Shown: positions 1 to 9,471, numbered from the stretch's first letter. The stretch: 10,063 nt of DNA from Candidatus Electronema aureum (GCA_004284765.1 NQJD01000058.1:1-10063); one strand, 5' to 3'. A program made the numbers and translations. Notes: generated by a model from the letters alone, not told the origin.

Positions 1-85
1 GTAAGGTGTCATAATCTGCTGTCCGAACCGGATCATCCGGCATGGTGAGGGCGTTCGGCTTTGGCCGCCATTGCACTGTTTTCAT
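1..85 (-). CDS. Partial CDS (first 28 codons; continues beyond window start). Small protein with similarity to the extreme C-terminal (post/late COR-B) tail of the two ROCO proteins.
   Basis: Reverse-complement reads ATG(85..83) MKTVQWRPKPNALTMPDDPVRTADYDTL. An AGGAGA Shine-Dalgarno sits about 7 nt upstream (rc of 92-97). Residues 13-28 (LTMPDDPVRTADYDTL) align with ELIPMPDEPYITADYETL of the 793-aa protein and GIPLPDTPSIIADYNTL of the 678-aa protein. It is too short to appear in the ORF track because it is truncated by the window edge. Confidence 0.45.
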   Translation of the reverse strand, partial: MKTVQWRPKPNALTMPDDPVRTADYDTL

Positions 86-146
86 GGTAGGTCTCCTGTT
101 GGGTTGAGGGGTGTTGTGGCGTAAGGGCGAAAGATTTTTCGCCTCT
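86..146 (-). repeat. Intergenic module copy 1, start-proximal half. Contains a degenerate hairpin and is interrupted by the IS at 147.
   Basis: GTTGTGGCGTAAGGGCG (113-129) matches GTTGATGGCGTAAGGGCG (1761-1778). Stem GGCGAAA (126-132) pairs with TTTCGCC (137-143) around loop GATT. The outer part of the arm is lost or diverged exactly where the IS left end begins. Confidence 0.6.
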
Positions 147-163
147 AGACCTCTTGCATAAGT
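147..163. repeat. IS left terminal inverted repeat (IRL)
   Basis: AGACCTCTTGCATAAGT is the exact reverse complement of 1011-1027. Confidence 0.85.
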
Positions 164-188
164 AAAATTTATATGCTAACGATAGTGA

Positions 189-1011
189 ATGAAATACGAA
201 ACAGTGCATATCCTCAGAGAAGAAGATTGTAAACGGTCAACAGGTGTTCAGCGTTCGACCTTCGCCAAGATGCTTGAGGTTGTCGAGCAAGGGCTGCGCA
301 ATTTTGACAGACCGCCAAAATTGGGCCGGGCCGATCAGCTCCTGCTGACCTTGATGTATTGGCTCGAATATCGGACTGAATTTCACATTGGCCTTGCTTA
401 TGACATCAGCGAGTCGGCGGTGTGCCGGACGATTAAAAAGATTGAAAACGCACTCATTAAGTCGGAGCAATTTCATCTACCCAATAAAAAAGCACTTCAG
501 TCCGACAGCATGAAATTTGAAATTATCCTTGTTGATGCCACAGAACAACCGATTGAACGCCCAAAAAAAACAGCGGCAGCATTACAGCGGCAAAAAAAAG
601 TGCCATACTCAGAAAGCGCAGATAATTGCAGAGATGGATACTGGAATGATTCTTGCTGCCGCCTTTTGCACAGGGAGGAAACATGATTTTCAGCTTTTCC
701 AAGAAAGCGGAATCAAATTACCGCCGCATGTCGTGCTGCTGGCAGATGCTGGTTATCAAGGCGTGGCTAAAATACATCCCAACAGTCAGACATCGTTCAA
801 AAAAACTAAACTGCATCCGTTAGACAAAGAACAAAAAACGAGCAACAGGGCTTTATCTCGGAAACGTATTGTGATTGAACATATTTTCCGCAAACTCAAA
901 GTGTTCCGTATTTTGAGCGAACGGTATAGAAACAGGAAAAAGCGTTTCGGTCTCCGCTTTAGCTTGATCGCCGCCGTCTATAACATGGAGCTGAAAATTG
1001 CTTGCGGATGA
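189..1011 (+). CDS. IS5-family DDE transposase (N-terminal HTH plus Harbinger/PIF-like DDE core), encoded in two overlapping frames. It needs a +1 shift (or one fewer A) to be contiguous.
   Basis: The frame of 189 gives an HTH-like N-terminus (LTLMYWLEYRTEFHIGLAYDISESAVCRTIKKIE) and the first catalytic D (ILVDATEQPIERPKK). The frame of 517 continues with QRQHYSGKKKCHT, GRKHDFQLF, LLADAGYQG (second D), RIVIEHIFRKLKVFRIL (E) and YRNRKKRF. These motifs are typical of IS5-family/DDE_Tnp_4-type transposases. The junction is at the A8 run 563-570. Confidence 0.8.
563..570 (+). other. A8 homopolymer at the transposase frame junction (frameshift, slippage or mutation site)
   Basis: The upstream frame reads CCA AAA AAA ACA. 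The downstream frame reads CAA AAA AAA CAG CGG CAG CAT TAC (QRQHYSGKKK). Seven A residues instead of eight would give a single contiguous ORF. A second A8 run lies at 593-600. Confidence 0.6.
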
Positions 1012-1027
1012 CTTATGCAAGAGGTCT
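1011..1027. repeat. IS right terminal inverted repeat (IRR)
   Basis: ACTTATGCAAGAGGTCT is the exact reverse complement of 147-163. Confidence 0.85.
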
Positions 1028-1056
1028 TCTGTAGGAATCATCTTCAGAGGCACCCA
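1028..1056 (-). repeat. Intergenic module copy 1, stop-proximal half (separated from its other half by the IS)
   Basis: TCTTCAGAGGCACCCATCA (1041-1059, ending in the vapC stop) aligns with TCCTCAGAGGTGCCTTTCA (1806-1824) and TTCTCAAGGGTGCCCATCA (4267-4285). Each ends at the stop codon of the upstream gene. Confidence 0.55.
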
Positions 1057-1484
1057 TCAGCACGCTTTGTATGGATTGCAGACTGTCAAAGTGCCGTTGA
1101 CAGTCAGGCCGTCCTGCATGTCCTCAGACAGAAACCAGCGGCAGCCCATGTCCAAGGCGCATTGCACATGCAGGGAATCATAGGGGGAGAGCTTGTATCT
1201 GTCGCACAGCTCCTTGCCCGCAGGATGACAGCCGGGGTGACGGCCATTGGCTGCCATGCCTCCAGCAGACGGATGAACTGCCTGCGCGCCTCTTTGTCAA
1301 CAAGATGGGGGAACTTCCTCACCATGACGTTGCGCCATTCAGAAAGCACCTGCACGGAGATGCGCCCCATGCCCGTCTGAGCGAACGCCGAGACGCGCTG
1401 CTTGTCTGCCGCATTGCTGTCGTGCAGATAGACAAAAATGTTGGTGTCCAAATAGCAGACATCGCGTAGGATGCTATCGTTCAT
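1057..1484 (-). pseudogene. vapC: PIN-domain VapC-like toxin, disrupted by a 1-nt frameshift
   Basis: The N-terminal frame (ATG at 1484) gives MNDSILRDVCYLDTNIFVY..VQVLSEW, then becomes nonsense after ..PAVILRA. The C-terminal PIN consensus KELCDRYKLSPYDSLHVQCALDMGCRWFLSEDMQDGLTVNGTLTVCNPY lies in a second frame (ORF 1057-1257). The frames meet near 1213-1220, where CTGCGGGCAAGGAGCTG would read LRAKEL with one extra base. Confidence 0.8.
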
Positions 1485-1743
1485 TCATCTCCTCGCGGCT
1501 CAGTTTGTTGTCCGCCCAGTTGAGCGGAAAGGTCGGGGGGCTGCTGAAGTATTCCGCCGCCTGCTGGTGCAGCACCTTTTCCCGTGTCTGCCGCCGCTGC
1601 CTGATCAGCAGCTCAAGGCTGGCCGCATCGTCGGTGAGCCAGCTGTTGAGCAGCTGCGCCGCTGCCTGCTTCTCCGCTGTTGTCGCGATGCGGTACCGCC
1701 GGGCCGCCAAGGGGTCAATGTGCTCAATCCTCAAGCTGCTCAT
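1474..1743 (-). CDS. Putative antitoxin partner of the PIN toxin (VapB-like by position; family not recognised)
   Basis: An 89-aa ORF lies directly upstream of the PIN gene and overlaps it by 11 nt (its stop is 1474-1476; the toxin ATG is at 1484). An AGGAG Shine-Dalgarno lies upstream of the ATG at 1743. Size and arrangement are typical of type II TA operons. Confidence 0.55.
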   Translation of the reverse strand: MSSLRIEHIDPLAARRYRIATTAEKQAAAQLLNSWLTDDAASLELLIRQRRQTREKVLHQQAAEYFSSPPTFPLNWADNKLSREEMNER

Positions 1744-1821
1744 GATCTTGCTCCTGTGGAGTTGATGGCGTAAGGGCGGTTCGCGAACCGCCCTTACAGA
1801 AATAATCCTCAGAGGTGCCTT
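1744..1821 (-). repeat. Intergenic module copy 2 (78 nt) with a perfect 28-nt palindrome
   Basis: GTAAGGGCGGTTCGCGAACCGCCCTTAC occupies 1770-1797. It lies 24 nt after the stop of the 793-aa gene and 26 nt before the antitoxin ATG. No U-tract follows on either strand. Confidence 0.75.
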
Positions 1822-4203
1822 TCATCTTCTTGCCTGCTGCTGTCGCTGTTTATCCCAAACCCGTATTTGTTTGAACAGTTCAGCAAGGTTCATTTCAACA
1901 GATGTGGGTGCGAGCGGCTTATCAAAAAAGTCATTAACTGTTGTCATGAAGGATTTCTTCTCGTCCGGCTGCAAGTTCATCTTCTCTGGAATCACAGACA
2001 GCTCTTTCGCATTCTTCGGCTGCACCAAGCCGAGCAGCTTACTCACGCTGTATTCCTTGTTTGAACCCGCCGGAAAATAGACATCAATCAGTCGGCCAGC
2101 ATATTTCAGCAGGGTCTCATAGTCAGCGGTGATATATGGCTCATCAGGCATTGGTATCAGCTCCATGGCCTTGATCTTCTCAAACTTACCGTTGATATCG
2201 GCAAACAGGTAGCGGAGATAGTGCAGATACTCCCTGCGGCGTTTGCCCTGCACCCAGATATTGATCCGCCGCGCCTCGTGATCAGCCTTGACCACCGCCT
2301 CGCTGCCGCTCTCCTTGTCGTGTAGCACCACGCCGGTGCGCCAGCAGGTTTTCGCCTTGATGTCCTTATGCACCTTGACCATGAAGCGGGGGAAGACCGA
2401 AGGCGGTAGGAAGTCAGGATAATGGAGGGCAAAACGGAGCGAGTCGCTGTAGTCGAAACTGAATTCCGGTTCCGGCACACGGAGGAGCTGCGGGATGAGG
2501 ACAGCCTCCTCGCCGAAGGGGTAGCACAGCTTGAACTTCTTCATCAACTCAATAAGATAAGCGTGCGTGTGCGCAGGGTAAGAGTATTTTTCATATCTAC
2601 CATGCCGCAGGATGTTCCGCAAACTGTCAAAGCGGAGTATCCCCTTGCTGGCCGCCAGTTCCTCGGCAGTGAGGATTGTATAGACAGCATTGGTGACCCA
2701 AATTGGGTCCAGCACGTGCATAGCATCCAAGATATAATCCTTGAAATGCACCGCTACTCCGAGATCATGGAGGAAATCAAGCAGCGTCTCGCTGCTTTGC
2801 TCATTGGCAATGCCTGCCTCTGCGCAATAGCCCTTGTACTCCTTCGCGCTGATATAGGGCTTATCCATCTGCTCCAGCCTGCGCTTGACAGTAAACCAGG
2901 TACCGGGCCAGCTAATGCCGATCATCTCGACCTTAGGCAGCTCTGCTATGAGTGCCTCTTTTAACTGGGCAATGCCCTTGCCGGTCTTGCAAGAGGCGTG
3001 GAAGAATGCCTGTATACCGGGATATTTTTCCCGCAGGAAAGGACGGTTAATATCGAATCCTGGGTTGGCATCCTGCTTGTTCAGCACAATCAGCACCGGC
3101 GAGTTCCCGCCGAAAGATTCTATGTGCCGCAGCCAGTATTCCGCCCGTTCATCCTTGCGACCATCGAGCACGAGGACATACAGGCTCCGCTTGGACAGGA
3201 AGAACTGGTGCGTGGCGTGCATGATCTCTTGGCCGCCGAAGTCCCATACATTGATCCTGATCCGCTGGCCGTCAGCCTCCACTTCCCAGCCCCGGATGCT
3301 GATGCCATGCGTCGTGTCCTCTTGTTCATCAAATGATTGGCCGAGGAGCTGCTTGACTAAGGAGGTCTTGCCTACTGCCCCGTCTCCGACCAAAAGCAGC
3401 TTCACCTCATTGAGAGACTGCTTGCTTTTTTCCAGTTCACTGAAGTACTGGCGTATCGCCCCAATTCCCTTCTCAGTGATTTCTTGTGGCGGGGAGATGA
3501 GGGGATTATTGGCAATGCCGAGATGTTTCAGCTTCATCAGGAGGCAGATTTCAGGCGGCAGGACAGCAAGTTGATTGTCGTTAAGGTAAAGCTCGATTAG
3601 ATTTTTCAGGTGGCAGATTTCAGGTGGCAGGGAGGCGAGTTGGTTACTGCGAAGGTCAAATACGGTTAATTTCGTTATCTGGCAGATTTCATACGGCAGG
3701 GATATTAACTGGTTGCTGCGGAAATGAAGTGTGGCCAGCTTCGTTATCTGGCAGATTTCTCGTGGCAGTGTAGCAAACAGGTTGCTGCTAAGGTCAAGCG
3801 TAGTCAGCTTCGTTAGCTGGCGTATTTCCGGCGGCAGAGTGGTGAGTTGGTTAATACCGAGGTTAAGCCAAATCAGACTGGTGAGCTGAAACAGTTCCTG
3901 CGGCAGGATGGCAAGCAGGTTGCTGCTGAGGTTAAGCGTGGTTAAATTCTTTAGCTGGCAGATTTGAGGCGGCAGAGTGGCAAGCATATTGCCGCTAAGG
4001 TCAAGCGTAGTCAGCTTTGTTAGTTGGCAAATTTCCTGCGGCAGGTTGGTGAGTTGGTTAATACCGAGGTTAAGCTCAGTCAGGCTGGTGAGCTGAAACA
4101 GTTCCTGCGGCAGGGTGGCAATTCCATTCCCGCTGAGGTCAAGCTCAGTCACCCCACTTGCCTTAGCATCTTCTATCACCTTCAGCAGTTCTTCGTTCGT
4201 CAT
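1822..4203 (-). CDS. ROCO-type GTPase A: 10 leucine-rich repeats, a Roc (Ras-of-complex) G domain, a COR domain and a C-terminal tail; 793 aa
   Basis: Residues 18-247 are ten 23-aa LRRs (LxxLxLxxNxLxxLPxEIxQLxx). Roc motifs are GDGAVGKT (P-loop, nt 3364-3387), DFGGQ, NKQD and SCK. COR-like blocks are WFTVKRRL, ETLLDFLHDLGVAVHF, LIPQLL, FLPPSVFPRFMVKVH and WRTGVVL. No kinase or other enzymatic effector domain is recognisable. Confidence 0.9.
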   Translation of the reverse strand: MTNEELLKVIEDAKASGVTELDLSGNGIATLPQELFQLTSLTELNLGINQLTNLPQEICQLTKLTTLDLSGNMLATLPPQICQLKNLTTLNLSSNLLAILPQELFQLTSLIWLNLGINQLTTLPPEIRQLTKLTTLDLSSNLFATLPREICQITKLATLHFRSNQLISLPYEICQITKLTVFDLRSNQLASLPPEICHLKNLIELYLNDNQLAVLPPEICLLMKLKHLGIANNPLISPPQEITEKGIGAIRQYFSELEKSKQSLNEVKLLLVGDGAVGKTSLVKQLLGQSFDEQEDTTHGISIRGWEVEADGQRIRINVWDFGGQEIMHATHQFFLSKRSLYVLVLDGRKDERAEYWLRHIESFGGNSPVLIVLNKQDANPGFDINRPFLREKYPGIQAFFHASCKTGKGIAQLKEALIAELPKVEMIGISWPGTWFTVKRRLEQMDKPYISAKEYKGYCAEAGIANEQSSETLLDFLHDLGVAVHFKDYILDAMHVLDPIWVTNAVYTILTAEELAASKGILRFDSLRNILRHGRYEKYSYPAHTHAYLIELMKKFKLCYPFGEEAVLIPQLLRVPEPEFSFDYSDSLRFALHYPDFLPPSVFPRFMVKVHKDIKAKTCWRTGVVLHDKESGSEAVVKADHEARRINIWVQGKRRREYLHYLRYLFADINGKFEKIKAMELIPMPDEPYITADYETLLKYAGRLIDVYFPAGSNKEYSVSKLLGLVQPKNAKELSVIPEKMNLQPDEKKSFMTTVNDFFDKPLAPTSVEMNLAELFKQIRVWDKQRQQQARR
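3463..4152 (-). repeat. Ten tandem 69-bp coding repeats (LRR array of ROCO A), including a 207-bp higher-order duplication
   Basis: The repeats are in frame with a 23-codon period. Segments 3788-3907 and 3995-4114 align at an offset of exactly 207 bp, with about 11 mismatches in 120 bp by eye. Confidence 0.9.
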
Positions 4204-4282
4204 GGCCTGCGCCTCAGTGGTGTTTTCAGCGTAGGGGCAAAAAATCTTTTGCCCCTACATGCGCCATTCTCAAGGGTGCCCA
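4204..4282 (-). repeat. Intergenic module copy 3 (79 nt) with a 12-bp stem / 4-nt loop hairpin
   Basis: GTAGGGGCAAAA-AATC-TTTTGCCCCTAC occupies 4231-4258. It lies 24 nt after the stop of the 678-aa gene and 27 nt before the ATG of the 793-aa gene. This is the same geometry as copy 2, with compensatory base changes in the stem. Confidence 0.75.
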
Positions 4283-6319
4283 TCAGCGGCCCGACTCCTT
4301 CTGCCGCTGCTTATCATACGCCCGTGCCTTTTTGAATATCTCAGTGAGGTTGATCGTAGCAAAACCGAGTGGTATCTCAAACGTAACAACATTGATCAGC
4401 CAATCTGTCAAAGATTCCTTATCGGCAGGCTCAAGTGGCATCTTCTCTGCAAAGGCAAGCAGTTCATCTTTATCTTTCGGCTGCACCAAACCAAGCAGAT
4501 CGCTCACGCTATATTCTTTACCAGAACCTACGGCAAAATAGACATCGATCCCCCGGCTCGCATACTTCACTAAGGTGTTATAATCTGCAATAATAGAAGG
4601 AGTGTCAGGCAAAGGAATCCCCTCATTGACATCTAAGATGTCAAAGCTGCCGTTAATCTCCAGCAGCGAATACCAAAGGAAGTTGAGGTACTCCTTACGG
4701 CGCGAGCCACGCACCCAGATTTCAATGCGATTGGTGTGCCGATTCGATTTGACCACCGCCTGCGTGCCGCTCCGCTGATCCTCTAACAGCACGCCTGTCC
4801 GCCAGCAGAGATTGTCTTTGATGTCCTTATGCACCTTGACCATAAAGCGGGGGAAGACCGAGGGCGGCAGAAAACTGTCATACCGGAGCACAAAACGAAG
4901 CGTGTCGCTATAGTCAAAGGAAAAGGCTGGCTGTTCAGCAAAGAGCACTTGGGGGATCAGAACCGTTTCCTCATCGATATTGTAGCACAGCTCGAATCGT
5001 CGCATTAATTTCAATATGAAAGGGTGTGTATCCTTTGGACAGCAACATCTCCCCCCTTCCTTGTGATGCAGGATTTCTCCCATACTGTTCACTTCAAGGC
5101 GGCCTCCCTTTTGTATCGTTTCCTCAGCAGTGACAAGACGATAAACCGCCTTTGTCACCCAGTCTGGCCTAAGCACGTGCATGGAATCCAAGATGAATTC
5201 CTTGAAATGCACAGCCACGCCGAGATCATGGAGGAAGTCAAGCAGCGTTTCTCGACTCGCCTTTTCGGTGATGCATGCCTCTTGGCAGATGGTTTCATAT
5301 TCCTCCGCCTTAATGTAGTGCCCATCCATCCGCTCCATGCGCTGCTTGACAGTCAGCCAGTTCTTCGGCCAGCGGATGGCAGTCATCTCCACCTTAGTCA
5401 GCTTGTCTATGAGTGCCTTTTTAAACTGGACAATGCCTGTATCGTTCTTGCAAGAGGTGCGGAAGAAGCGACGGATGTTCGGATATTTTTGCTGTAGATT
5501 GGCATGATCGAGATTATATTGAGGGCTGATATCTTGCTTGTTAGTAACAACCAAGACGGGTGAGTCGCCGCCAAAAGCCTTGATGTGATGCAGCCAGTAT
5601 TCCGGCTCTTCCTCTCTGCGGCCATCGAGAACTAAAATGTACAGGCAGCGCTTGGAGAAGAAGAACTGATGCGTGGCGTGCTGCATCACCTGCCCGCCAA
5701 AGTCCCAGATATTGGCTTTGAGCTTCCGCCCGCCGACCTCCACATCCCAGCCCCGGATATTGATGCCGTGCGTAGGATTTTCGGCTTGATCGAATATCTC
5801 ATTGAACAGCCGCTTAACTAAGGAGGTCTTGCCAGCTTCCCCGTCACCGACCACGAGAATCTTCACCTCGTTGAGGAACTGCGTGCCACTGTTCAGCTCC
5901 GCAAAATACTGACGCATGGCCTCGATGCCCTGAGTGGCGATCTCCAGTGGAGGGGAGACGAGCGGGTTGTCGCCAAGCCGGAGCGTTTCCAGCTCAGGCA
6001 GCTTGCATATCTCAAGCGGCAGGCTATTCAACTGGTTGCCGCTGAGGTCAAGCCATGTCAAATTGGTGAGCTTGCTGATCGCAGACGGCAGGCTGTTTAG
6101 CTGATTGCCGCTGAGGTTCAGCCATGTCAAATTGGTAAGCTTGCTGATCGCAGACGGTAGGCTGTTTAGCTGATTACCGCTGAGGTTCAGCCAAGTCAGG
6201 TACCGTAGCTGGAACAGCTCCGGCGGCAGGGCGGTGAGCTTGTTTAAACTGAGGTCAAGCGCAGTTGCCTTGCTTGCCTTCACCTCTTCGATCACCTTCA
6301 GCAGCTCTTCATTCGTCAT
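4283..6319 (-). CDS. ROCO-type GTPase B: 5 leucine-rich repeats, a Roc G domain, a COR domain and a C-terminal tail; 678 aa; paralog of A
   Basis: It shares the N-terminus MTNEELLKVIE with A. Residues 18-132 are five 23-aa LRRs. Roc motifs are GDGEAGKT (nt 5825-5848), DFGGQ, NKQD and SCK. It is collinear with A over all 546 post-LRR residues. A GAGGTG Shine-Dalgarno lies upstream of the ATG at 6319. Confidence 0.9.
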   Translation of the reverse strand: MTNEELLKVIEEVKASKATALDLSLNKLTALPPELFQLRYLTWLNLSGNQLNSLPSAISKLTNLTWLNLSGNQLNSLPSAISKLTNLTWLDLSGNQLNSLPLEICKLPELETLRLGDNPLVSPPLEIATQGIEAMRQYFAELNSGTQFLNEVKILVVGDGEAGKTSLVKRLFNEIFDQAENPTHGINIRGWDVEVGGRKLKANIWDFGGQVMQHATHQFFFSKRCLYILVLDGRREEEPEYWLHHIKAFGGDSPVLVVTNKQDISPQYNLDHANLQQKYPNIRRFFRTSCKNDTGIVQFKKALIDKLTKVEMTAIRWPKNWLTVKQRMERMDGHYIKAEEYETICQEACITEKASRETLLDFLHDLGVAVHFKEFILDSMHVLRPDWVTKAVYRLVTAEETIQKGGRLEVNSMGEILHHKEGGRCCCPKDTHPFILKLMRRFELCYNIDEETVLIPQVLFAEQPAFSFDYSDTLRFVLRYDSFLPPSVFPRFMVKVHKDIKDNLCWRTGVLLEDQRSGTQAVVKSNRHTNRIEIWVRGSRRKEYLNFLWYSLLEINGSFDILDVNEGIPLPDTPSIIADYNTLVKYASRGIDVYFAVGSGKEYSVSDLLGLVQPKDKDELLAFAEKMPLEPADKESLTDWLINVVTFEIPLGFATINLTEIFKKARAYDKQRQKESGR
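5924..6268 (-). repeat. Five tandem 69-bp coding repeats (LRR array of ROCO B), with two near-identical adjacent units
   Basis: Units 6052-6120 and 6121-6189 differ at only 3 of 69 positions (6068/6137, 6089/6158, 6107/6176). All three changes are synonymous, and both units encode LTWLNLSGNQLNSLPSAISKLTN. Confidence 0.9.
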
Positions 6320-6406
6320 GACGTATACACCTCGGTTATTCGTAGGAAAGGGGCAGGTGTTGCGTCTGTCCGCAGAAAGGCTCCACTGGACTAAGCCAGC
6401 GGAACC

Positions 6407-6434
6407 AGCATACCAATCCTGCCATTTTTTTCAA
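6407..6434 (-). promoter_or_regulatory. Candidate sigma70-like promoter for the ROCO cluster (speculative)
   Basis: On the minus strand, TTGAAA (6434..6429), a 16-nt spacer, then TATGCT (6412..6407). It lies about 90 nt upstream of the ATG at 6319. This is a pattern match only. Confidence 0.25.
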
Positions 6435-6545
6435 CAGGATAATTGCCCTGCTCTTAATGCAGAACGGCTGGCAGATTCTGTAGGCAGGCAGCTTGACGCA
6501 GGCAGGCGGAGCAGGAATAAAACTGGAGGGTGACTACTAAGCAAT

Positions 6546-6590
6546 CTGGAGGGTACCCATCAGGCATTCTGGTGGGTACCCTCCAGTTTT
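6546..6590 (+). terminator. Strong intrinsic-terminator-like hairpin followed by TTTT (plus-strand polarity)
   Basis: CTGGAGGGTACCCA (6546-6559) pairs perfectly with TGGGTACCCTCCAG (6573-6586). The stem is extendable through a U-G wobble and CAG/CTG (6561-6563 with 6569-6571) to about 18 bp with a 5-nt loop. TTTT follows at 6587-6590. A third arm copy, AAAACTGGAGGGT, lies at 6519-6531. Confidence 0.6.
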
Positions 6591-6614
6591 AGCGTTGGGC
6601 AGCTATAAATTCCA

Positions 6615-6644
6615 TTGGTCAATGCCAGGCGGGATGGTTATAAT
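6615..6644 (+). promoter_or_regulatory. Candidate sigma70 promoter of the terC-mntP operon
   Basis: TTGGTC (6615-6620), an 18-nt spacer, then a perfect TATAAT (6639-6644). It sits immediately downstream of the terminator hairpin and about 310 nt upstream of the TerC ATG. Confidence 0.5.
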
Positions 6645-6650
6645 GATCAC

Positions 6651-6953
6651 GCAGCGTTATGCCGGGCCGGAAATCGGCGGGGCCTCAACTTCACCTGCCA
6701 GCTGCGTGACGGTGGAATAAGCTCCGCACAAGGTATGCTGGGTATGAGCAAGCATGTTTGCTCGCGCAGAGACACGTTTGCGCCTCTGGCAGTGCAGCCT
6801 GCAAGGAAGTGCTCTTCCTGCTGAACTCCTTGCAGGGTATGAAGCAGAATGGTACGCTGAGATGGAGGCGGGTGCGGTCAGGTCTTACGGCATTTCTGGT
6901 GCAGCCGCTGTCACTTTATAACTAGATACTTACACAACAAGGAGATTCCGCAC
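6651..6953 (+). promoter_or_regulatory. Long structured 5' leader of the terC-mntP operon (candidate cis-regulatory RNA; class unresolved)
   Basis: About 300 nt lie between the predicted promoter and the ATG, with several strong pairings: TCACGCAGC (6647-6655) with GCTGCGTGA (6701-6709); hairpin GAGCAA-GCATGT-TTGCTC (6746-6763); CCTGCAAGGA (6798-6807) with TCCTTGCAGG (6828-6837), which competes with an internal AGGAAG/CTTCCT hairpin. An AAGGAG Shine-Dalgarno lies at 6939-6944. Confidence 0.4.
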
Positions 6954-7727
6954 ATGATTTGGCTCGCCGACCCTCAAGCCTGGATAGCCTTCCTCACCCT
7001 CGTCCTCCTCGAACTCGTCCTCGGCGTGGACAACGTGATCTTCATTTCCATCTTGGCTGGGAAACTCCCGCCACATGAGCAGGCGCGCGCGCGGACAACC
7101 GGCATCATGCTGGCTATCGGCACGCGTATTCTACTGCTGCTCTCGCTCTCTTGGATCATTGGCCTGACTGAGCCGATGTTCTCAGTCCTCAGCTATCCAA
7201 TCTCAGGGCGAGACATCATCCTGATTGTCGGCGGCCTCTTTCTGATTGGCAAAAGCACCCATGAGATTCATGAGAAGCTGGAAGGCGAGGAAGAGCACGT
7301 CTCCAGCAACGGGCAGAAACGAAACGGGCCGTCCTTTGCCAGCGTGATCATCCAGATCCTCCTACTTGACGTGGTCTTCTCGCTCGATTCAGTCATCACG
7401 GCAGTAGGCATGGTTGATCAGCTGTCTGTGATGATCGCCGCTGTTGTTGTCTCAGCCTGCGCAATGGTCTTTCTGGCGGGCACCATCAGCAACTTCGTCA
7501 ATCGTCACCCAACCGTGAAGATGCTGGCTCTGAGCTTTCTGCTGCTGATCGGCTTCACCTTGATCGTCGAGGGCTTGCACCAGCATATTCCCAAGGGCTA
7601 CATCTACTTTGCTATGGCCTTCTCAGTTTTTGTCGAGACGCTCAACCTGCGCCTGAAGAAAATCGGCAGAACACCCGTGCAGCTGCGCACGGCCTACACC
7701 AGCGAAGCTGACAGCACGGCGAAGTGA
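6954..7727 (+). CDS. TerC-family integral membrane protein (YkoY/Alx-like; the family is implicated in Mn2+ export and metalation)
   Basis: A 257-aa polytopic membrane protein with the family signature near the N-terminus (LLELVLGVDNVIFISIL) and a second-half repeat (LLLDVVFSLDSVITAVG). A strong AAGGAG Shine-Dalgarno lies 9 nt upstream. Confidence 0.9.
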   Translation: MIWLADPQAWIAFLTLVLLELVLGVDNVIFISILAGKLPPHEQARARTTGIMLAIGTRILLLLSLSWIIGLTEPMFSVLSYPISGRDIILIVGGLFLIGKSTHEIHEKLEGEEEHVSSNGQKRNGPSFASVIIQILLLDVVFSLDSVITAVGMVDQLSVMIAAVVVSACAMVFLAGTISNFVNRHPTVKMLALSFLLLIGFTLIVEGLHQHIPKGYIYFAMAFSVFVETLNLRLKKIGRTPVQLRTAYTSEADSTAK

Positions 7728-8287
7728 GTTTCTTTGAAATCGTTGTCATTGCCTGTGGCTTGGCAATGGATGCAGCGGCAGTCTCCCTGGCTGCCGCTGC
7801 CGCAGGCTTTGTTCAAGATGTCCGCTCCTCCTGCCGCCTCGCCTTTCATTTTGGCCTCTTCCAGTTTCTCATGCCAGTGCTGGGTTGGCTGGCTGGAGTC
7901 AACTTCGCTGCCTCGTTCGCCACGTTCGACCACTGGATTGCCTTTGGTCTACTGACCTTTGTCGGCGGCAGGATGCTGTGGAACGGCTTTAGTCAGGAAC
8001 AGGAGGAAGAAAGCATTGCTAATGACCCTTCACGCGGCCTGACCTTGGTGCTGCTCAGTCTCGCCACGAGCATTGACGCGCTGGCTATCGGTCTCAGTCT
8101 TTCCATGCTGGAGGTGACGATTTGGTATCCAGCAGCCATGATCGGCATTATCACCGCCCTGCTTTCCGCACTTGCCATCATGATCGGGAAGAAGGTGGGG
8201 ACAAAGGCAGGAAAACGGATGGAGATATTCGGTGGCGTGATTCTGGTGGTTATTGGAACACGTATTTTGATTACACATCTGCTTTGA
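7724..8287 (+). CDS. mntP: Manganese efflux pump MntP (DUF204/YebN family)
   Basis: A 187-aa membrane protein with the duplicated DUF204 motif (GLAMDAAAVSLA and ATSIDALAIGLS). Its GTG start overlaps the TerC stop (GTGA, 7724-7727), which suggests translational coupling. Confidence 0.88.
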   Translation: MSFFEIVVIACGLAMDAAAVSLAAAAAGFVQDVRSSCRLAFHFGLFQFLMPVLGWLAGVNFAASFATFDHWIAFGLLTFVGGRMLWNGFSQEQEEESIANDPSRGLTLVLLSLATSIDALAIGLSLSMLEVTIWYPAAMIGIITALLSALAIMIGKKVGTKAGKRMEIFGGVILVVIGTRILITHLL

Positions 8288-8295
8288 AGCCCACT

Positions 8296-9471
8296 ATGAT
8301 CACTATCGGCATTGAACAGCTCATTTCTGATCCACCGCCTTTCCTTGCCGGGAAGCGGCTAGCCCTGCTCTGTAATCAGGCTTCCACGGACAGCCGCTTC
8401 CGCCACAGCCGTGATCTGATCATGCAGGCGTTTCCCGGCCAGCTGGTCTGCCTCTTCTCACCGCAGCACGGCTTCTTCAGCGAGAAGCAGGACAATATGA
8501 TTGAGTCCGGGCATGGTCGGGATGCAGCCACGGGCTTGCCGGTTTTCTCGCTCTACGGAGAAACACGCGAGCCAACCGCAGCGATGTTCGAGGGCTTTGA
8601 TATTCTGTTGATTGACCTGCAAGATGTGGGTACGCGGGTCTATACATTCATTTGGACAGTAGTGCATTGCCTACGACAAGCGGCGGCGACAGGGAAAAAG
8701 GTGGTTGTCCTTGACCGCCCGAACCCAGTCGGCGGTGTGCTCCTTGAGGGCAACCTGCTCAAGCCGGAGCTACGTTCCTTTGTTGGCCTGCATGAGATAC
8801 CCATGCGCCACGGCTTGACGATGGGCGAATTGGCCTTGCTCTGTAACCGGGAACTGGGCATTCACGCTGATCTTGACGTGGTGCAGATGCAGGGCTGGAC
8901 ACGCGAAATGTTCTTTGCTGACACCGGCTTTCCTTGGGTCTTCCCCTCGCCGAATATGCCCACGCCTTTGACTGCGCTGGTTTATCCCGGCCAAGTGATC
9001 TGGGAAGGCACCAACGTCTCTGAAGGACGCGGCACCACGCTGCCCTTTGAGCTGGTTGGTGCGCCATTCATCAAACCGCAGCAGGTGCTTGCTCGGTTAA
9101 GCCGCACGGACTTGCCCGGCTGTGTGCTTCGCCCGTTAGTCTTTGAGCCGACCTCTGGTAAATGGGCTGGTCATGCCTGCGCAGGCTTTCATATCCATGT
9201 CACAGAGCCGCGCTGCTTCCTCTCGTACCGGCTCAGTCTTGCCCTGCTGGAAGCCTTCCTCCATCTCTACCCGCACGACTTTGCTTGGAAACAGCCTCCT
9301 TACGAATACGAATACGACAAGTTGCCCATCGACCTGATCCTTGGTGACCAGAGTGTGCGTGAGGCCTTGGAGCAAGGCGCAAACATTGTCGAGCTCGAGC
9401 GGTCTTGGCAGGAGGAATTGGCTGCCTTCGATGAGCGGAGGCGGGTTGTTTTCCTTTACCCTGAGCGATAG
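8296..9471 (+). CDS. DUF1343 family protein (NamZ/YbbC-like exo-beta-N-acetylmuramidase family)
   Basis: 391 aa counted from the ATG at 8296, 8 nt after the mntP stop. The N-terminus IGIEQL..LAGKRLALLCNQAS is typical of the family, as are SPQHGF, LYGETREPT, DLQDVGTRVYTF, LDRPNP and PSPNMP. The ORF-track start at 8122 lies inside mntP and is rejected. Confidence 0.85.
   Translation: MITIGIEQLISDPPPFLAGKRLALLCNQASTDSRFRHSRDLIMQAFPGQLVCLFSPQHGFFSEKQDNMIESGHGRDAATGLPVFSLYGETREPTAAMFEGFDILLIDLQDVGTRVYTFIWTVVHCLRQAAATGKKVVVLDRPNPVGGVLLEGNLLKPELRSFVGLHEIPMRHGLTMGELALLCNRELGIHADLDVVQMQGWTREMFFADTGFPWVFPSPNMPTPLTALVYPGQVIWEGTNVSEGRGTTLPFELVGAPFIKPQQVLARLSRTDLPGCVLRPLVFEPTSGKWAGHACAGFHIHVTEPRCFLSYRLSLALLEAFLHLYPHDFAWKQPPYEYEYDKLPIDLILGDQSVREALEQGANIVELERSWQEELAAFDERRRVVFLYPER

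Follow-up and report, generated by a model that had tools for sequence, protein, structure and literature searches.

In a 10,063-nt window of Candidatus Electronema aureum GS, a complete draft contig that also lies within the closed 2.94-Mb chromosome OW818638.1 (as part of the 22-kb locus L001), we identified two tandem genes, here named ROCO_A and ROCO_B. They probably extend the known prokaryotic ROCO family by two members, and they form a conserved two-gene module amid rearrangement debris. The rest of the region appears to be that debris: a mobile vapBC cassette with a frameshifted toxin gene, an IS5-family insertion sequence (IS) and the chimeric remains of another paralogue, ROCO_C. The host is a freshwater, filamentous, multicellular cable bacterium. 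All coordinates are window positions unless a locus identifier (L0xx) is given.

Profile searches recovered the domains that an earlier sequence-only reading of this DNA had anticipated. ROCO_A (793 aa; 1822-4203, minus strand) gave strong Pfam matches to leucine-rich repeats (LRRs; LRR_8, 5.6e-29), Roc (7e-33), COR-A (9.8e-40) and COR-B (5.2e-27), as did ROCO_B (678 aa; 4283-6319, minus strand; LRR_8, 1e-18; Roc, 6e-29; COR-A, 9.2e-37; COR-B, 1.5e-25). The COR-A and COR-B matches span the full profile length in both proteins, and matches to LRR_4 and LRR_14 accompany those to LRR_8. The G motifs, previously described as intact, are legible in both translations: GDGAVGKT in ROCO_A, GDGEAGKT in ROCO_B, and THG, DFGGQ, NKQD and SCK in each. 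Open reading frames (ORFs), Pfam domains and spacer thus agree on two co-oriented LRR-Roc-COR genes 79 nt apart, whose products are 55% identical over 665 aa.

Domain boundaries follow the same order in the two genes, both read on the minus strand. In ROCO_A, a helix and 10 LRR units (~4158-3469) precede Roc (~3435-2929), COR-A (2907-2482), COR-B (2445-2032) and a C-terminal tail (2031-1825); in ROCO_B, a helix and five units (~6274-5930) precede Roc (~5896-5390), COR-A (5368-4943), COR-B (4906-4493) and the tail (4492-4286). Each unit comprises 23 aa, a length that the 69-nt periodicity of the DNA fits, and two of the ROCO_B units are identical copies; the difference in LRR copy number noted at first sight is one of 10 against 5. 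The draft annotation of ROCO_A (CDV28_1587, 100% identical) is a 571-aa protein with the LRR region left out; the 793-aa ORF opens with MTNEELLKVIE, and this N-terminus is conserved in paralogues and orthologues.

Comparison with solved structures placed both proteins close to prokaryotic Roco proteins. ROCO_A matched the CtRoco structure 6HLU (1.7e-136) and the MbRoco2 structure 4WNR (8.2e-124) in a phmmer search of the PDB. An AlphaFold2 (AF2) model of ROCO_B built with 100 homologues reached a mean pLDDT of 89.3, and Foldseek ranked 6hlu first (E 6.5e-45), with 3dpu and 4wnr next and LRRK1 and LRRK2 after them; superposition on 4wnr gave 52% identity, a TM score of 0.90 and an rmsd of 2.3 Å. 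Because Pfam domains, G motifs, the CtRoco and MbRoco2 matches and the predicted fold concur, we class ROCO_A and ROCO_B, on sequence and model, as bona fide group-1 ROCO proteins (LRR-Roc-COR). Wauters et al. (2019, PMC6337361) state that every prokaryotic Roco protein then known was LRR-RocCOR.

The closest known systems share this core and differ around it. CtRoco (Chlorobium/Chlorobaculum tepidum; PDB 6HLU, 3DPU, 8R4B) has the same LRR-Roc-COR-A-COR-B layout and the same G motifs, including switch II DxxGQ, and is the best match in both sequence and fold; the window proteins, however, have far fewer LRRs (5 and 10), show 28-33% identity to it in structural alignments, stand as a heterotypic tandem pair and carry a conserved tail that the CtRoco C-terminal region does not match. 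Methanosarcina barkeri Roco2 (4WNR, RocCORdeltaC) is the closest solved Roc-COR-A at the 52% identity given above, and Methanosarcina homologues bear the same C-terminal tail motif as the window proteins; it differs in being archaeal, in its longer LRR region and in its MobA and MoaE-MobB neighbourhood, and the solved construct is without COR-B and tail. Human LRRK2 and LRRK1 (ROCO group 2) have the LRR-Roc-COR core fold in common with the pair (Foldseek E ~1e-27 to 1e-29; identity 18-21%), whereas the window proteins are without kinase, WD40, ankyrin or armadillo domains. Prokaryotic Roco proteins are common structural stand-ins for the Parkinson's-disease kinase LRRK2, and the literature cited here treats them as structural and biochemical models without an assigned biological role.

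The ROCO_B-ROCO_A pair

ROCO_B-type proteins proved rare: among billions of sequences we found the window's own and two more, which with L002 makes four genomic instances, representing four cable-bacterial lineages. In 4/4 instances an A-type gene follows the B-type gene after exactly 79 nt, the short-LRR gene (B) always standing first and the long-LRR gene (A) second. Reciprocal best matches connect ROCO_B with L002 7954-9921 (87.5% identity) and ROCO_A with L002 10001-12658 (76%). The flanking genes differ at each site: TerC and vapBC in the window, a sigma-54 regulator and a histidine kinase in L002, EptA/HAD and an aminotransferase-CobQ fusion in L084, and a DHH-CBS-polyA polymerase in L085.

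The spacer itself (4204-4282, minus strand) contains a 28-nt perfect hairpin at 4231-4258 (GTAGGGGCAAAAGATTTTTTGCCCCTAC; dG -18.6 kcal/mol), which is identical in L002, and a GGGCACCC motif immediately 3' of the ROCO_B stop codon. Scanning detected no terminator-like sites between ROCO_B, ROCO_A and vapB, and a promoter scan placed a promoter-like site at 6434-6407 (TTGAAA-16-TATGCT), ~90 nt upstream of ROCO_B. This site lies in a conserved upstream leader (6320-6589, minus strand) that is 90% identical in L002 and common to L085, L084 and L011; a leader of ~260 nt is common to several ROCO paralogues. Because the B-then-A order and the 79-nt spacer are kept where the flanks differ, with no terminator-like site and with a promoter-like site upstream, the pair, newly found here, behaves at the sequence level as a two-gene module, a relocatable operon. 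The recurrence of this arrangement in four lineages lends some weight to the earlier suggestion that the tandem may act as a unit.

CtRoco undergoes a monomer-dimer cycle in which the C-terminal half of COR serves dimerisation, and its dimer is a homodimer (Wauters et al. 2019, PMC6337361). Since G motifs, COR-A, COR-B and fold are conserved, we infer a cycle of this type for the window proteins: by analogy with CtRoco, each would act as a GTPase switch that dimerises through COR-B when free of nucleotide or bound to GDP and is monomeric when bound to GTP, and the LRRs would pack back on Roc-COR and offer a protein-interaction or regulatory surface. The gene arrangement suggests that the pair would be co-transcribed from the upstream promoter and that ROCO_A and ROCO_B may plausibly heterodimerise via COR-B. 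The output would most likely be a change of oligomeric state or binding partner, the most economical guess. A conserved heterotypic ROCO pair is a lead on heterodimerisation versus homodimerisation.

Beyond COR-B, Pfam bounds and the AF2 model leave a tail of ~69 aa, shorter than the roughly 110 aa first read. Its motif, roughly LLGLVQPKD...DEKES...PxxFGIxxNLNELFKRxL followed by a K/R-rich end, is common to cable-bacterial, other bacterial and Methanosarcina homologues; within the fetched loci, 61/89 ROCO proteins have the tail, and no convincing case of it was seen outside ROCO proteins. Neither single-sequence nor profile searches matched it to the PDB, the CtRoco C-terminus included, and Pfam gave no match. 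Its mean hydrophobic moment is ~0.62 and its net charge ~+4, a basic, amphipathic character not significantly beyond that of shuffled controls. The tail may, speculatively, share in the output, perhaps via membrane or partner binding. It is missing from every solved construct, and we regard the conserved pair and this uncharacterised tail as modestly interesting leads.

Defence and other candidate roles

The sequence-only reading had taken the locus for an NLR-like sensing and defence system, and we examined this proposal at the level of the proteins, their neighbours and the family. PADLOC-DB 2.0 models, run on ROCO_A, ROCO_B, VapB and VapC, gave 0 matches. Pfam revealed no domain beyond LRR-Roc-COR in either ROCO protein, and no effector (nuclease, protease, TIR or other) was found fused to them or nearby in the 22-kb locus; that no effector is recognisable had been said at the outset, and Pfam and PADLOC bear it out. 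A STAND-class NTPase module (NACHT, NB-ARC, AP-ATPase) was likewise not found, Pfam giving solely the Roc, Ras and Arf small-GTPase models. None of the genes of the 22-kb locus carries a vWA or MoxR Pfam annotation.

Genomic neighbourhoods were drawn from the best 80 of at least 480 loci, in species-representative genomes and with crude ORF calls, and yielded 215 proteins within two genes of ROCO homologues. PADLOC matched few of these, and the matches identified member by member are RecQ and MutS. Strong "DpdF" and "PsyrT" matches were set aside as a defence signal, since they are RecQ helicases (RQC, HRDC, RecQ_Zn_bind) in L045 and L080, and so were the "mad8" matches, which are canonical MutS; the search also returned single matches to a Type I methyltransferase and an RT-protease (model match alone). 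This census is a local count over the 80 loci and not a genome-wide statistic. Pfam annotation of the same neighbours was dominated by housekeeping functions (MutS, RecQ, MobA/MoaE-MobB, epimerases, PEP carboxylase, DXP synthase, tRNA synthetase), with three PIN proteins in all. No effector or partner family recurred among the 215 neighbours, and all-vs-all clustering of them gave no family-wide partner, only generic ABC-transporter and two-component families and a synteny specific to Methanosarcina. That synteny links eight ROCO loci (L016, L019, L025, L026, L028, L030, L062, L065) through a MobA-like NTP transferase, a MoaE-MobB fusion and a DUF7847 protein; some Methanosarcina loci hold tandem ROCO copies.

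We found no ROCO relatives in viral contigs. Plasmids gave 14 matches, mostly cyanobacterial and at ≤40% identity. The best plasmid relative (Nostoc plasmid NZ_CP117771.1, 183668-185092), annotated as "SAV_2336 N-terminal domain-related protein", may have another ROCO architecture. Within the library of papers searched, none ties ROCO or COR proteins to phage defence. Among orthologues, A-type identity is 68-78% in the LRRs (with a four-repeat indel, E. aureum against two orthologues), 78-82% in Roc-COR and 52-72% in the tail, and the B-type values are 100% (with a one-repeat indel), 90% and 72%, respectively. By this sequence comparison, the LRRs are without the hypervariability of arms-race sensors.

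Two known classes of conflict system provide a further yardstick. STAND/NLR sensors such as Avs and bNACHT resemble the window proteins in general plan, with an array of repeats joined to a switch whose oligomerisation NTP drives, but the latter have a Ras-like Roc GTPase instead of a STAND ATPase, place their repeats at the N-terminus, and show neither an effector domain nor a defence-island context. Roc-COR "AP-GTPases" are rare components of vWA-MoxR (VMAP) ternary systems, in which Roc is strictly coupled to COR and which occur in multicellular prokaryotes, as here (Kaur, Burroughs, Iyer, Aravind 2020). In those systems, however, the GTPase is fused to vWA, whereas the window locus is without vWA, MoxR, VMAP or effector-associated domains.

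If the pair served defence or conflict in the manner of NLRs, the LRRs would sense an invader, Roc-COR would oligomerise, and an unrecognised effector (the tail or a partner outside) would bring about abortive infection. We consider this unlikely. The architecture of repeat sensor and NTPase switch is analogous to that of NLRs, the pair travels intact from one genomic context to another and occupies a lineage-specific spot that holds toxin-antitoxin (TA) modules and an IS, cable-bacterial genomes each hold many ROCO paralogues, "AP-GTPases" figure among the vWA-MoxR conflict-system domains (Kaur et al. 2020), and a related genome has a TIR-domain gene at the equivalent spot upstream of TerC. 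However, PADLOC was silent on all four core proteins, the neighbour matches that could be identified are RecQ and MutS, no effector or partner recurs among the neighbours, the locus has neither vWA nor MoxR, the switch is a Ras-like Roc, and the LRRs are not hypervariable; moreover, four cable-bacterial genomes have ROCO_C beside mutS, synteny with molybdopterin genes marks the Methanosarcina loci, and both the viral contigs and the searched literature yielded nothing. The defence reading is unsupported by the tests run, and we give it a low probability; what support is left for it is circumstantial, namely the variable TA/IS spot, the many paralogues with their evident gains, losses and rearrangements, and the prominence of the family in multicellular and giant prokaryotes. 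Its most specific form, in which the B-then-A pair would serve cable bacteria as an immune or conflict module, relocatable and built on a GTPase switch, with a COR-B heterodimer and the conserved basic helical tail as output (membrane binding or perturbation, or partner recruitment), strikes us as improbable; if true, it would provide STAND/NLR sensors with a GTPase-based counterpart and prokaryotic Roco proteins with their first biological function. Repeat-plus-NTPase architecture beside TA modules and IS is insufficient to call a defence system, a caution for automated screens.

Two alternatives do without conflict. ROCO_A and ROCO_B may be functionally independent tandem duplicates, each a homodimeric switch, whose adjacency is historical only. 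This is a possible though doubtful account: CtRoco is a homodimer, the paralogues are only 55% identical and most homologues in the 80 loci are solo genes, but gene order, the 79-nt spacer and an identical hairpin are kept in four lineages despite fully reshuffled flanks, and every one of the four B-type genes has an A-type partner. Alternatively, the family could serve cell-biological signalling in large or multicellular prokaryotes (filament integrity, cell-cell coordination, membrane or cytoskeletal organisation), which seems to us rather unlikely. Its best homologues fall into several groups that include large or multicellular forms: cable bacteria, filamentous cyanobacteria, Beggiatoa-like bacteria, Thiomargarita, Achromatium, and Methanosarcina and anaerobic methanotrophic (ANME) archaea. 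Housekeeping neighbours prevail, and one paralogue is fixed beside mutS in four cable-bacterial genomes. This phyletic pattern, however, is an impression from the best 80 of at least 480 loci, a list that also includes Zixibacteria, Aminicenantes and Acidobacteria, and the same pattern has been reported for conflict systems (Kaur et al. 2020).

Several observations weigh against our preferred reading of a conserved ROCO module without a defence assignment. Most members of the family stand alone, so that homodimers are in general enough. The spot varies between lineages and holds TA modules and an IS, a setting also typical of defence genes, and a weak association with defence could be missed because ORF calls were crude and only the best 80 of at least 480 loci were covered. 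As for the tail as a possible contributor to output, its three helices are predicted in the ROCO_B model at a pLDDT of 62-80, below the rest of the model, and its candidacy as an amphipathic membrane anchor was rejected, the signal not being significantly above composition-matched shuffles (z ~0.5), so that such a role stays speculation.

Mobile and decayed neighbours

Downstream of ROCO_A lies the vapBC-like pair already noted in the sequence-only reading. The vapB-like antitoxin gene (89 aa; 1474-1743, minus strand; weak RHH_10 match) is apparently intact, overlaps vapC by 11 nt, and is 87-89% identical at the amino acid level to orthologues in L002 and L009. The vapC ORF (1104-1484, minus strand; pseudogene span 1057-1484) tells a different story from a complete module: DNA alignment against the intact 147-aa genes of L002 and L009 revealed a 1-nt deletion near 1215, causing a frameshift, and an in-frame 15-nt deletion near 1390. 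Restoring one base yields a colinear PIN protein, and the Pfam match to PIN falls under the gathering threshold. Both genes are therefore present as first described, but vapC is by sequence a frameshift pseudogene, and the pair does not amount to an intact VapBC.

The vapBC cassette (1104-1743, against L002 3594-4383 and L009 5013-5753) retains 85-88% DNA identity across three species, above the ~72-78% of the adjoining ROCO_A gene. Because of this excess identity, the alignments suggest that the cassette moved horizontally of late. Past the window's left end, at L001 14519-14934, a gene for a RelB-like antitoxin precedes a RelE/ParE-like ORF of 69 aa with an abrupt end (..RIGDYSASVFRSS*); L002, L011 and L014 have copies with 87-93% DNA identity, and the two genes may be a second decaying TA module.

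An 881-bp IS occupies 147-1027 (plus strand), bounded by 17-bp perfect inverted repeats (AGACCTCTTGCATAAGT) and a 3-bp target duplication (TCT); its target site is uninterrupted in L002 (4320-4480). The transposase matches HTH_Tnp_4 and DDE_Tnp_1 / DDE_Tnp_4 in Pfam and is spread over two ORFs, 189-686 and 517-1011, which cover residues 4-135 and 132-285, respectively, of the 285-aa NCBIfam profile NF033581. With DDE transposase, inverted repeats and target duplication all present, its sequence identifies it as a member of the IS5 family. Two A8 runs (563-570, 592-599) lie in the overlap of the ORFs, and instead of inactivation, programmed frameshifting or slippage during transcription could account for the split. 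An unusual abundance of insertion sequences has been described for the closed genome of Ca. E. aureum GS (Sereika et al. 2023).

At the window's left edge, a small ORF (1-85, minus strand, running past the edge) had been taken for a COR-tail mini-gene and a possible output of the system, a view that closer comparison overturns. A tblastn search showed 77% identity to ROCO_A residues 685-714, followed by a change of frame; the closed genome gives the ORF a length of 48 aa, and the ROCO-tail homology continues in two more frames. Its ribosome-binding site and first 13 codons (MKTVQWRPKPNAL) correspond to the beginning of a 384-aa gene that follows vapBC in L002 (L002 4382-4490). The remainder of the stump and the RelB-like TA downstream of it align at 88% DNA identity with a full-length ROCO gene of Electronema sp. 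PJ (L011), over its 3' end and the region beyond. Because the start matches one gene and the rest the 3' end of another, the small ORF is, as judged from these alignments, a deletion chimera, the frameshifted stump of the third paralogue ROCO_C.

In four cable-bacterial genomes (L004, L005, L010, L014; ~10001-15150 in each), namely Electrothrix laxa, Electronema PJ, Electronema JM and an unclassified Desulfobulbaceae metagenome-assembled genome, a gene of the ROCO_C type is the immediate upstream neighbour of canonical mutS. The gap between ROCO_C and mutS holds a RelB-like, vapB-like or PIN cassette in some of these genomes. The ROCO family as a whole is heavily expanded and rearranged in cable bacteria.

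Dispersed repeats and flanking genes

Two families of palindromic repeats are scattered through the locus. The first is a 28-nt perfect palindrome, GTARGGGC-N12-GCCCYTAC, with two fully compensated core variants, AAAAGATTTTTT and GGTTCGCGAACC (dG ~-19 kcal/mol). Besides the spacer copy, the window has one of the second variant between ROCO_A and vapB (1770-1797; GTAAGGGCGGTTCGCGAACCGCCCTTAC; dG -19.9) and a third at 121-146, whose edge is cut by the IS insertion. Further copies occur at L002 19212-19239, L014 12384-12411, 15182-15209 and 15412-15439, L018 4755-4782 and L047 4682-4709, among others, and ~10/16 copies abut ROCO genes. This hairpin looks like a REP-like element; Rfam gave no match within the window.

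The second family is a palindrome of ~40 nt around GGGTACCC, for example CTGATGGGTACCCTCCAG. In the window it is represented by a pair at 6543-6589 and by a copy at 4262-4281; elsewhere it is present in L009 (at least nine copies), L010, L011 and L022. It is found in both orientations, often overlapping a stop codon or beginning at one. The conserved ROCO_B leader has this repeat at its upstream edge, and recombination may be concentrated there. Electronema and Electrothrix loci contain both families repeatedly, among other places around mutS and in the kdpA-kdpB gap. The intergenic modules had earlier been likened to cassettes; an integron-like nature was rejected, both palindromes being dispersed repeats that occur at kdpA/kdpB and mutS as well. 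The rest of the variable-island picture stands: on sequence comparison the locus is a variable spot rich in repeats, IS and TA, with a decayed vapC.

Divergent from the pair, the housekeeping genes TerC, MntP and NamZ occupy 6954-9471 (plus strand). This TerC/MntP/NamZ flank is common to 0 of the 80 ROCO loci, and the orthologous MntP-NamZ block of three related genomes has no ROCO gene alongside. The three genes form a tight co-oriented block in which TerC and MntP overlap at stop and start; NamZ is listed as a 449-aa ORF that begins within MntP, and its true start is probably near 8296 (391 aa, like P0121). A second TerC gene (L001 15517-16485) lies ~8 kb off, across the ROCO/TA/IS island.

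The surroundings of the MntP-NamZ block differ between genomes. Near the block in L083 (13022-17893) we observed a gene for a 1495-aa Trypsin-nSTAND1-WD40 protein together with a Trypco1 partner and PIN/MazE modules, and another related genome (JGI contig, 5966-7486) encodes a TIR_2/beta-helix protein upstream of TerC. These are genuine conflict-type genes in Electronema-like genomes.

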